A stretch of 64,000 nt of DNA, from positions 103,510 through 167,509 of IMG/VR virus record IMGVR_UViG_2716884767_000001; one strand, written 5' to 3'. Positions 22,651 to 40,800 of this stretch are shown piece after piece (the first letter of the stretch is position 1; each line of letters begins with the position of its first letter). This DNA is from a virus. The notes beneath the pieces were generated by a model. It saw only the letters and a program-made list of their open reading frames with translations, was not told where the DNA came from and searched no databases. Both the position numbers and the translations under genes were made by a program.

Positions 22651-22800
22651 ACAAAGGACTCGAAAGGATCGTAACCCTGCGTACAACTGCTCTTAAACCG
22701 AGACCTATAGGCAGTCTAATACTTCGTCTCTCATATCCATCAGTGAAGGGATTGATGGAAATATAAGTTTCGCTCTACCCTTTGAGCCCTACTTATTCAA
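22651..22800 (+). ncRNA. Structured psbA 5' leader, probably including a PhotoRC-II-type motif
   Basis: ~180-nt UTR with GAGAC/GTCTC and TCCATCA/TGATGGA stems; such motifs are known upstream of cyanophage psbA; family identity not verified by covariance model. Confidence 0.55.
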
Positions 22801-39878: not shown

Positions 39879-40186
39879 CTAAAACTGTTTGGACTCCTCA
39901 AGAAAAAGATGGACTAAAACAAAAGTATGGATGTGAAATATTAGTCGAGAGGGCAAAGCAAGATCAACTGAATAGCACACAGTTTCCATCTGATTCTTAT
40001 ATCGTTGAATATAAGATTGATGATGAAACCATGTATGATTTAACACGAGGAACACAATCTACTCTGTTTGATATGTATTATGACAAGTTTAAATCTCAAT
40101 TAGTATCAATAAATTATGGAAGAGGTAATATTAAACCTCAATTATGGAATTATAGTAAACCAAAAGAAAAGAAAAAGAGAAGATAA
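39875..40186 (+). CDS. Hypothetical cyanophage protein
   Basis: 103-aa ORF, overlapping start. Confidence 0.7.
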   Translation: MTKTVWTPQEKDGLKQKYGCEILVERAKQDQLNSTQFPSDSYIVEYKIDDETMYDLTRGTQSTLFDMYYDKFKSQLVSINYGRGNIKPQLWNYSKPKEKKKRR

Positions 40187-40194
40187 TATAAAAT

Positions 40195-40210
40195 TGTAAC
40201 AGAAGTTACA
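40195..40210. promoter_or_regulatory. NtcA binding site
   Basis: TGTAACAGAAGTTACA = GTA-N8-TAC in a perfect palindrome, just upstream of a -35 box. Confidence 0.7.
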
Positions 40211-40217
40211 AAAGTCC

Positions 40218-40246
40218 TTGACTATATAGTGTGGGTATGCTAACAT
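40218..40246 (+). promoter_or_regulatory. Sigma70-like promoter placing the TSS at about 40253
   Basis: TTGACT-17 nt-TAACAT. Confidence 0.65.
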
Positions 40247-40253
40247 ACCTTTA

Positions 40254-40482
40254 CGTTCATCCAAATGATAGAACTCACACTACTGGCATCACTCCTTACT
40301 GAACATAATGCTTCCCATTGGGAAATGTCTTGTTTAGAATGGAATCAAAACAGAATTGAGATACTTAGTGATAAGAATCTTAACTCTGATGCTCACGAGT
40401 ATCTTATAGATTACTTGAGAACTAAAGTGTCAGATGACTGTGATGCTTATATCATCGGACGCAAGTAAGCCGACACGGAACG
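40254..40482 (+). ncRNA. Upstream glutamine-II-like aptamer with a ~195-nt ORF-containing P2 loop
   Basis: 5' half CGTTCATCC (40254-40262), 3' half GGACGCAAGTAAGCCGACACGGAACG (40457-40482); extra ATGATA/TATCAT pairing. Confidence 0.55.
40265..40468 (+). CDS. Hypothetical 67-aa protein nested within the aptamer loop
   Basis: ORF track; nearly leaderless start about 12 nt after the predicted TSS. Confidence 0.65.
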   Translation: MIELTLLASLLTEHNASHWEMSCLEWNQNRIEILSDKNLNSDAHEYLIDYLRTKVSDDCDAYIIGRK

Positions 40483-40486
40483 GGTT

Positions 40487-40527
40487 CGTTCATCCCGAAA
40501 GGGACGCAAATGCCGACTGAAGGAACG
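40487..40527 (+). ncRNA. Glutamine-II riboswitch aptamer (Downstream-peptide RNA motif)
   Basis: CGTTCA-TCCC-GAAA-GGGA-CGCAAATGCCGACTGAAGGAACG; P1 CGTTC/GAACG; directly upstream of a YRG-motif peptide. Confidence 0.8.
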
Positions 40528-40563
40528 GGGCTAAAAATCCCTACTACTTACAGGAGAAAACCG

Positions 40564-40689
40564 ATGGCAAAAGTCACATACAGAGGTGTTGTATACGACA
40601 CCGACAGAAACAAAGGACAGCAGACTAACAAGGTCGATTTAACTTACCGTGGTGTAAGATTAGAAAAAGAACTTACAAGTGTTAAGTGA
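40564..40689 (+). CDS. DUF4278-type 'downstream peptide' (41 aa)
   Basis: Hand-translated MAKVTYRGVVYDTDRNKGQQTNKVDLTYRGVRLEKELTSVK; two TYRGV motifs; AGGAG RBS. Confidence 0.85.
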   Translation: MAKVTYRGVVYDTDRNKGQQTNKVDLTYRGVRLEKELTSVK

Positions 40690-40772
40690 TTGAAACTCTA
40701 GAGATTTGTTTGGCATCTGCCATATTTCTCACAATCATAACTGCTGAAGTTAAGTTTCTATATGGAAAATAA
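40686..40772 (+). CDS. Micro-ORF, TM peptide (28 aa)
   Basis: GTGA overlap; (M)IETLEICLASAIFLTIITAEVKFLYGK. Confidence 0.55.
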   Translation: MIETLEICLASAIFLTIITAEVKFLYGK

Positions 40773-40775
40773 AAC

Positions 40776-40800
40776 GAAGGGGTTGATCCCCTTCTTTTTT
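40776..40800 (+). terminator. Rho-independent terminator
   Basis: GAAGGGG-TTGAT-CCCCTTC followed by T6. Confidence 0.85.

Follow-up and report, generated by a model that had tools for sequence, protein, structure and literature searches.

We analysed a leader RNA and its operon at positions 40195-40800 of a 64,000-nucleotide (nt) stretch of viral DNA (IMG/VR record IMGVR_UViG_2716884767_000001, positions 103,510 to 167,509), which we call the window. The window is that of a T4-like cyanomyovirus: it holds cyanophage genes and a PhotoRC-II RNA, and 40195-40800 is matched by 102 cyanophage isolate records, including Prochlorococcus phages MED4-213, P-HM1, P-HM2, P-SSM4 and P-RSM4 and Synechococcus phages S-PM2 and S-SSM7. 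From 5' to 3', the region carries a sigma-70-like promoter with NtcA-type boxes, an RNA of a glutamine-sensing class whose P2 stem is folded around an entire 67-codon open reading frame (ORF), a compact second unit of the same class, a DUF4278 (IF17-like) gene, a micro-ORF and a terminator (Table 1). An earlier note on this DNA had listed the distal NtcA palindrome, the promoter hexamers, both halves of the split aptamer with the ORF between them, the compact aptamer, the two downstream ORFs and the terminator, and all of these were found where it had placed them. We consider it probable that the region is a self-contained leader-plus-operon of the T4-like cyanophage, a judgement that applies jointly to our best explanation as a whole: a double glnA-type sensor, a shared helix P3, a gene in the stem and the mechanism set out below.

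By its motifs, the leader RNA is a glnA-type (glutamine-I) riboswitch in double form, with two predicted ligand-binding cores. The earlier note had placed it in the glutamine-II class, which did not hold: the compact unit matches the glnA model (RF01739) at 40485-40531 with 33.0 bits (E 3e-5; gathering cut-off 35) vs 21.2 bits on the glutamine-II model (RF01704; cut-off 33), the latter with mispaired columns in the 3' hairpin, and glutamine-II membership was rejected. Compact relatives score 41.0, 37.6 and 35.0 bits on RF01739. The ligand-binding helix P1 (5 bp, CGUUC/GAACG with the flanks CGUUCA and GGAACGG) is present, with strands at 40254-59, 40477-83, 40487-92 and 40522-28, and a P2 stem stands next to CGUUCA, as in the glnA class, with three to four covarying pairs in each P2 of the compact relatives. 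The inner P2 is a hairpin of 4 base pairs (bp) at 40493-40504; in most relatives, the same position holds an ORF of about 58 codons. The glnA junction elements that flank P3, ACG(G/C)AAGUA and GAAGGAACG, are also present but split between the units, with CGCAAGUA and the alpha strand coming from unit 1 and the beta strand and GAAGGAACG from unit 2. According to Huang et al. 2019, the ligand site is formed by the CGUUC/GGAACGG helix and a CGC strand that lies in the groove of this helix, P2 and P3 take a peripheral position in the solved structures, and both strand-swapped and two-piece forms of glutamine-II bind glutamine (PMC6698751). Both cores have every contact residue named there (C1, G2, U3-C5, the G and C of CGC, and GGAACGG); by homology, the CGC of CGCAAGUA would supply the base triple and the long-range C-G pair (roles as in PMC6698751).

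The earlier note had joined the two distant halves, CGTTCATCC (as RNA, CGUUCAUCC) and GGACGCAAGTAAGCCGACACGGAACG, across the ORF, and had proposed covariation of the long-range stem as a check. We fetched and parsed relatives from 80 viral contigs via the nested protein and from 119 via the inter-unit junction. Among these related phages the P2 stem across the ORF covaries and the ORF shows coding-type substitution, so the two halves do belong together around a real ORF. In 133 unique ORF-bearing units, counting a helix that begins right after CGUUCA and ends right before CGCAA, the mean contiguous P2 helix is 5.8 bp and 76% of units reach at least 5 bp, compared with a mean of 3.55 bp (maximum 4.02 in 2000 shuffles) when the partners are shuffled. 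Pair types change on both sides (UCCAA/UUGGA, UCCUUA/UAAGGA, UCCCA/UGGGA, UCUCU/AGAGA, UCAUC/GAUGA, UCCUAUG/CAUAGGA). The signal is smaller for units of the window's own type (outer stem around T4-GC 429), at 5.02 bp vs 4.12 bp shuffled (maximum 4.94), with a duplex energy of -14.24 kcal/mol for own partners vs -11.76 for shuffled ones (minimum -12.60, 200 shuffles); it still exceeds every shuffle. The window's stem consists of UCC/GGA, a small internal loop and then AUGAUA/UAUCAU, the exact complementarity of ATGATA (40265-70) and TATCAT (40450-55) having been pointed out in the earlier note, and this last helix forms spontaneously in the fold once P2 is imposed as a constraint. On this covariation, the P2 stem across the ORF is real.

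Placement of the genes within these stems is regular. A complete ORF is found in 242 of the 244 long P2 inserts; the distance from CGUUCA to the AUG of this ORF is 3-7 nt in 236 of these 242 units, and its stop codon falls inside the aptamer core in 220, usually as the TAA of CGCAAGTAAG or the TGA of GACTGAAGG. The window's outer P2 loop, at 194 nt, is the whole 67-codon gene. The arrangement as a whole is repeated in about 200 related phage loci, and all four combinations of compact and gene-bearing stems occur among close relatives: ORF-ORF in 87 parsed loci, compact-ORF in 45, compact-compact in 25 and ORF-compact, the architecture of the window, in 19. In MED4-213, P-SSM4 and P-RSM4 both units are split by ORFs, in the order CGTTCATCC, ORF T4-GC 429, 3' half, 3-4 nt, CGTTCATCC, a second ORF (about 58 codons, T4-GC 430/541) and 3' half, followed by a Shine-Dalgarno sequence and the DUF4278 gene. 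P-HM2 also belongs to the type with ORFs in both stems. Outside the two aptamer units, neither strand of the 64-kb window has a copy of the 9-mer 5' half or of the composite 3' half, and one glutamine-riboswitch locus was found across the 210-kb viral contig that holds the window. When cellular genomes were scanned with the inter-unit junction pattern, none of 120 loci, among the matches listed, was a real double aptamer; these were chance matches in unrelated bacteria.

Judged by its substitutions, the nested ORF is a real gene maintained by selection. Variability is 0.133 at third codon positions vs 0.040 at first and 0.032 at second positions, i.e., three to four times higher, and 62% of codon differences are synonymous. 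The encoded proteins are 31-46% identical among phages whose two half-motifs stay invariant, and their family, phrog_6471, has ten invariant columns, including both cysteines and a histidine. This family is listed in PHROG as being of unknown function; no Pfam family matched the nested protein, and its ESM Atlas neighbours are all viral hypothetical proteins. The AlphaFold model shows a small protein of three helices (pLDDT 78.6), for which there was no PDB match at E <= 0.001. The family in the second stem, phrog_504, is a distant paralogue of the first (hhalign probability 92%, E 6e-7, both cysteines aligned). In both slots the C-terminus is set by the RNA: GGA CGC AAG TAA (40457-40468) reads GRK-stop and is at the same time aptamer core in the first slot, and GAC GCA AAA GCC GAC TGA reads DAKAD-stop in the second, so that one sequence doubles as ligand-binding-type RNA core and coding sequence. 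In the second slot, of which L001:1166-1187 is an example, the ending is either DAKAD-stop or DAND-stop. Rarer ORF families of 68 and 66 residues (loci L147 and L168) fill the same stem slots; they have weak profile similarity to the main families and share the pattern of a hydrophobic N-terminus, a cysteine, about 40 residues and a second cysteine. The nested gene is without a Shine-Dalgarno sequence, its AUG being about 12 nt from the predicted 5' end of the transcript, and the nested ORFs of relatives likewise lack one, unlike the downstream gene.

The two units had been taken in the earlier note for tandem aptamers, the first of them perhaps degenerate, with its GACAC off the consensus. 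Neither view survived comparison with relatives. Unit 1 has the same 3' half, letter for letter, as the compact first units of relatives, and GACAC lies in a helix that covaries with unit 2; the linkers of units 1 and 2 covary as one helix, and the units are therefore interlocked rather than independent, most simply as a nested double core. The linkers fall into the covariation classes AGUCG/CGACU, AUUCG/CGAAU and AGUCA/UGACU. The class to which the window belongs has AGCCGAC-N paired with N'-GCCGACU, N-N' being U-A, A-U or G-C, and the window's own closing pair is the A-U pair A40475-U40511. The fraction of P3 that is paired is 0.815 vs 0.69 after shuffling (maximum 0.764 in 2000 shuffles). 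In an alignment of 24 compact double aptamers, 94.6% of P3 cells are paired vs 85.0%, the covariation score of 0.254 vs 0.087 was reached by 0 of 500 shuffles, and alignment pairs 34-96 and 42-89 change on both sides. As read from this covariation, the two cores share P3.

Several results suggest how the cores are interlocked. Where a relative has two compact units, RF01739 aligns best across the pair, scoring 41.0 and 37.6 bits and thus above the 35-bit cut-off; in these alignments, unit 1 gives CGUUCA-P2-CGCAAGUA-P3(5') and unit 2 gives P3(3')-GAAGGAACG. The GenBank record of S-CREM1 likewise has a single 99-nt glnA feature annotated over both units. RNAalifold predicts a nested fold, with an outer P1, an outer P2, an inner GAACG-loop-CGUUC hairpin and an inner P2, and this fold is lower in nearest-neighbour energy in 131 of 133 constructs with the ORF loop replaced in silico. 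We thus regard the interlocked double sensor as probably nested. Drawn in this way, the outer P1 would pair 40254-58 with 40523-27, the outer P2 would pair 40260-62 with 40457-59, lengthened by AUGAUA/UAUCAU, and the loop of P3 would contain the inner core, made up of the hairpin GAACG-GGUU-CGUUC (40478-91) and the P2 hairpin. The partner of the first GGAACGG would then be 40487-91, as a local hairpin, rather than 40254-58 as in a sequential model.

The gene downstream of the sensor matches Pfam PF14105 (DUF4278) with 26.3 bits (cut-off 25.3), carries two YRG motifs and lies directly behind a glutamine aptamer; the AGGAG upstream of its ATG is kept in 146 unique relatives. The overlapping 28-residue ORF has homologues at the same place in MED4-213 and P-SSM4 (MLVTTEIMVAS... 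and MLVVSEILLAS...), and from its sequence it looks like a real membrane micro-protein that is co-expressed with the IF17-like peptide. Expression was assessed from the cover by assembled metatranscriptome contigs (four runs in three studies). This cover extends over about 40196-40790 and is almost absent beyond, a pattern that fits a promoter-terminator unit but may also reflect conservation. A short hairpin at 40528-40541 starts at the G after GAACG; its stem seems to covary in relatives (GGGG/UCCC, GGAU/GUCC, GGAG/UUCC, GGAC/GUC), and it may be part of the DUF4278 expression platform. Some relatives (L007:1617-1700, L202:1461-1544 and about 15 other loci) have one more conserved domain, about 40 nt long (GGAACACGGAUC...AAAGGUG...), which follows the last GGAACG and precedes the DUF4278 Shine-Dalgarno sequence; the window is without it. 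A candidate pairing of the junction AAGUAA with UUACUU upstream of the Shine-Dalgarno sequence was dropped, the downstream motif not being conserved across classes. Elsewhere in the window, the PhotoRC-II RNA (RF01717, 70.2 bits, 22672-22772) is the only Rfam family above its gathering score, and one metagenomic relative has a tRNA gene about 115 nt upstream of the double aptamer (L195:939-1010).

Upstream, the earlier note had described an NtcA box, and the cassette, with a DUF4278 gene among its downstream genes, does have boxes of the NtcA type; we find two. GTA-N8-TAC is present in 140 of 167 unique upstream regions, where 5.9 would be expected by chance. Most of the 167 have a box at the distal position, 57-61 nt upstream of CGTTCA, the N8 spacers being of many kinds, and 51 have one at the proximal position, 18-20 nt from CGTTCA; P-SSM4 and P-RSM4 have the proximal box only, and their spacers differ. 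The motif is thus conserved at a fixed position, as in an NtcA-regulated promoter. The promoter stretch GGGTATGCTAACATACC is also kept in relatives, and transcription is predicted to start at about 40252-54. The layout of NtcA-activated promoters, in which a box at about -41.5 replaces the -35 element and TAN3T follows about 22 nt downstream, was not found in the window: given a predicted start near 40253, the distal box is centred at about -50.5, a good -35 (TTGACT) is present, the nearest TAN3T to the distal box (40236-41) is 26 nt away, and neither box lies at the activating -41.5. The proximal box covers TAACAT as in the repressed-class layout, the start position being predicted and the sites putative. 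In that layout the box lies over the -10 element or the start, as at gifB and at the IF17-like gene of Prochlorococcus MED4, where Klahn et al. 2018 place the NtcA site across the start (PMC6212724). Because the proximal box overlaps the -10 hexamer, the rule of Klahn et al. 2018 suggests that NtcA represses this promoter rather than activating it (PMC6212724). A -10-like TAATATAAA at 40182-40191 lies directly upstream of the distal palindrome, and since the same order of -10 and box is seen in P-SSM4 and P-RSM4, a second, NtcA-covered promoter is possible. At L025:1130-1190 and similar loci, AAATA directly follows the -35 TTGACT, making CTAAATA, which resembles a T4-type late promoter motif; with this motif nested in an early-type promoter, such relatives may transcribe the cassette at more than one stage of infection.

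Table 1. Positions of features at 40195-40800, numbered from the first letter of the window.
Feature	Position	Strand	Basis or remark
NtcA palindrome TGTAACAGAAGTTACA	40195-40210	+	contains the distal box
Distal NtcA-type box GTA-N8-TAC	40196-40209	+	sequence; box position conserved in relatives
Sigma-70-like promoter TTGACT-17-TAACAT (TTGACT 40218-23, 17-nt spacer, TAACAT 40241-46)	40218-40246	+	promoter scan 9/12 with TG
Proximal NtcA-type box GTATGCTAACATAC	40235-40248	+	overlaps -10 hexamer; absent from earlier note
5' half CGTTCATCC	40254-40262	+	sequence
CGUUC, 5' strand of ligand-binding helix P1, first (outer) core	40254-40258	+	invariant in all loci
P2 5' strand, UCC and AUGAUA including start codon	40260-40270	+	pairs with 40450-59
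Nested gene, 67 codons, T4-GC 429, phrog_6471, in P2 loop	40265-40468	+	ORF list; PHROG E 9e-31
P2 3' strand, UAUCAU, C, GGA	40450-40459	+	covariation and duplex energy
3' half GGACGCAAGTAAGCCGACACGGAACG, TAA stop (40466-68) inside	40457-40482	+	sequence
Junction CGCAAGUA	40460-40467	+	fits RF01739 consensus CGGAAGUA
Alpha strand AGCCGACA of shared P3	40468-40475	+	pairs with 40511-18
First GGAACGG, 3' strand of ligand-binding helix	40477-40483	+	invariant
Compact aptamer CGTTCA...GGAACG	40487-40527	+	sequence
Second core: CGUUC, A, P2 hairpin UCCC-GAAA-GGGA, junction CGCAAA	40487-40510	+	RF01739 match
Beta strand UGCCGACU of shared P3	40511-40518	+	pairs with 40468-75
GAAG and second GAACGG, 3' end of glnA aptamer	40519-40528	+	fits RF01739 consensus GAAGGAACG
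DUF4278 / IF17-like gene, 41 aa; Shine-Dalgarno AGGAG 40552-56, ORF 40564-40689 (ATG 40564)	40552-40689	+	PF14105, phrog_5049
28-aa hydrophobic micro-ORF, overlapping DUF4278 stop codon	40686-40772	+	ORF list
Intrinsic terminator, 7-bp G+C-rich hairpin (40776-94) and T run	40776-40800	+	terminator scan

Taken together, these features can be read as a switch that acts in both directions. Transcription would probably be gated by NtcA via the two GTA-N8-TAC boxes. Folding of P1 and P2, stabilised by glutamine, would hide the start of the nested gene, which would be open to occlusion because it is without a Shine-Dalgarno sequence and about 12 nt from the predicted 5' end. Conversely, when a ribosome arrives at the stop codon of this gene, it would lie over P3 and the first GGAACGG and so unfold both cores. 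Klahn et al. 2018 showed experimentally that either class of glutamine aptamer switches DUF4278 genes ON (PMC6212724). By analogy with these cyanobacterial switches, glutamine should turn ON the IF17-like gene, which has a strong AGGAG. The same mRNA would then give the nested small protein at low glutamine and the IF17-like peptide at high glutamine. It is tempting to regard the leader as a reciprocal, ribosome-resettable riboswitch, in which one interlocked sensor pair picks either the nested proteins or the IF17-like peptide, terminating ribosomes erase the fold, and the stems are exchangeable gene slots, all four occupancy states being seen and the occupants being paralogues. We infer the translation-coupled switching, and we put this full scheme forward tentatively, as a possibility we ourselves doubt.

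Some observations weigh against a nested double sensor coupled to translation of the gene in its stem. P3 of the window's class has two internal mismatches. The P1 strands are invariant in relatives, and because P1 never varies, the choice of partner for CGUUC cannot be read from covariation. The outer core escapes scoring by the Rfam model, since the ORF splits it. The unconstrained fold of the window RNA (-76.4 kcal/mol) does not recover the long-range P1, and with constraints the real window RNA folds at -73.1 kcal/mol in the sequential model vs -69.9 in the nested one. Sequestration of the AUG is weak, at least two of its nucleotides being paired in 84% of units vs 71% after shuffling. The nested ORF may be translated on nascent RNA before the 3' half exists, and, awkwardly, NtcA repression under nitrogen shortage would limit a role of the nested gene at low glutamine. 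Some of these points would fit two sequential aptamers, each CGUUC pairing with its own GAACG (40254-58 with 40478-82; 40487-91 with 40523-27), with the alpha-beta helix as an inter-aptamer pseudoknot and unit 1 glutamine-II-like in topology. The constraint for this fold costs less in the real window sequence, compact first units reach 28.8 bits on the glutamine-II model, and glutamine-II uses exactly such a pseudoknot and tolerates strand exchange (PMC6698751). Yet this fold requires two interactions to cross, and none do when the cores are drawn as nested; the preference of RNAalifold and of 131 of the 133 spliced constructs is for the nested fold. Moreover, the units divide the glnA features GUA-P3 and P3-GAAGG between them, so that the nested alignment alone reaches the Rfam cut-off. 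We therefore think the sequential arrangement unlikely, though it deserves to be kept in view. That unit 1 is a dead relic, a compact aptamer broken by insertion of the ORF so that its halves are unpaired and the compact second unit works alone, seems very improbable: the unconstrained fold lacks the long-range helix and the Rfam model detects the compact unit alone in the window, but both halves stay invariant while identity among the ORF proteins is no more than 31-46%, covariation is seen in P2 across the ORF and between the unit 1 linker and unit 2, and the split form predominates (both stems ORF-bearing in 87 loci, 19 window-like). More improbable still is a local, circularly permuted aptamer made of the 3' half 40457-82 and the next 5' half 40487-95, with the first 5' half orphaned. 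Its GAACG-GGUU-CGUUC is plausible as a local hairpin, which is also part of the nested model, but the P2 that it requires, between the sequence before the first GGA and that after the second UCC, does not covary: its helix averages 3.04 bp and reaches 5 bp in none of the 133 units, vs 76% for own-partner pairing, and this candidate was rejected.

A different question is whether the gene takes part in the switch at all. The P2 loops could be permissive sites in which small genes are tolerated as passengers of a compact phage genome. The ORF would then be neither controlled by glutamine nor able to act back on the switch, and it would be translated on nascent RNA before the 3' half is made, much as for ORFs in peripheral loops of group I introns. 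With all four compact and ORF-bearing combinations in close relatives, the switch works with or without inserts, and P2 and P3 are peripheral in the solved structures (PMC6698751); AUG pairing only slightly above chance points the same way. Against this, the placement of AUG and stop codon is very regular, the nested ORFs are without the Shine-Dalgarno sequence that the downstream gene has, and a terminating ribosome must physically cover P3 and GGAACGG. The passenger explanation strikes us as possible but doubtful.

Group I and group II introns also carry ORFs in peripheral loops of a folded RNA, where translation and folding compete; these are mobile ribozymes with homing-endonuclease or maturase genes. 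The comparison is meant as an analogy; the RNA here is of a metabolite-sensor class and its ORFs encode small two-cysteine proteins. Closer relatives are the glutamine riboswitches themselves. Like the glnA RNA (RF01739) in the gifB leader of Synechocystis (PMC6212724), the phage leader has the CGUUC/GGAACGG ligand helix, P2 beside CGUUCA, a P3 helix and the junctions ACGCAAGUA and GAAGGAACG, precedes a DUF4278/IF17-like gene and has NtcA boxes at its promoter. In contrast to the glnA class, of which Ren et al. 2015 reported a structure (as summarised in PMC6698751), its P2 loop is a coding gene of 194 nt rather than about 4 nt, its P3 loop carries a second, permuted ligand-binding core, the start and stop codons of the gene lie inside the aptamer, and the host genome is that of a phage. 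With glutamine-II (the Downstream-peptide motif, RF01704; Huang et al. 2019, PMC6698751), which precedes DUF4278 genes in marine picocyanobacterial hosts, it shares the sequence of the ligand-binding core, the position before DUF4278 and, in the sequential model, the pseudoknot topology of unit 1; the hairpin at the 3' end that defines that class is here replaced by the helix shared with unit 2. Weinberg et al. 2010 treated 'tandem' glnA RNAs as tandem units giving more digital control (PMC2864571). The phage leaders likewise have two glutamine aptamer cores, 3-5 nt apart, but their linkers covary as one helix and their stems can carry genes.

As the earlier note had supposed for an ORF within an aptamer, we found no published description of this layout in a search that was without Ames & Breaker 2011 and Ren et al. 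2015. The literature we searched covers tandem glnA RNAs and their occurrence in cyanophages; genes inside the aptamer, or a helix shared between units, were not found in it. The gene-in-aptamer, interlocked-core arrangement, conserved in many related phages, is thus apparently undescribed. Riboswitch aptamers are usually treated as compact, non-coding domains upstream of the genes that they control, whereas here a well-studied aptamer class folds around whole genes and has start and stop codons within its conserved core, and a ligand-binding-type RNA core dictates part of the C-terminus of each nested protein (GRK, DAKAD). Covariance-model scans miss or mis-draw such gene-bearing aptamers, and the phage glutamine riboswitches so far counted as 'tandem' appear each to consist of one double sensor with interlocked cores. 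In this natural case, the RNA that is translated is also the RNA that must fold into the aptamer, so that the two processes have to compete, which makes reciprocal control from a single sensor directly testable. The cassette is widespread in marine T4-like cyanophages, in the 102 isolate records and in hundreds of metagenomic contigs. Its combination of NtcA boxes with glutamine sensing and an IF17-like peptide makes it a likely route by which these phages read and manipulate the nitrogen status of their hosts in the ocean.

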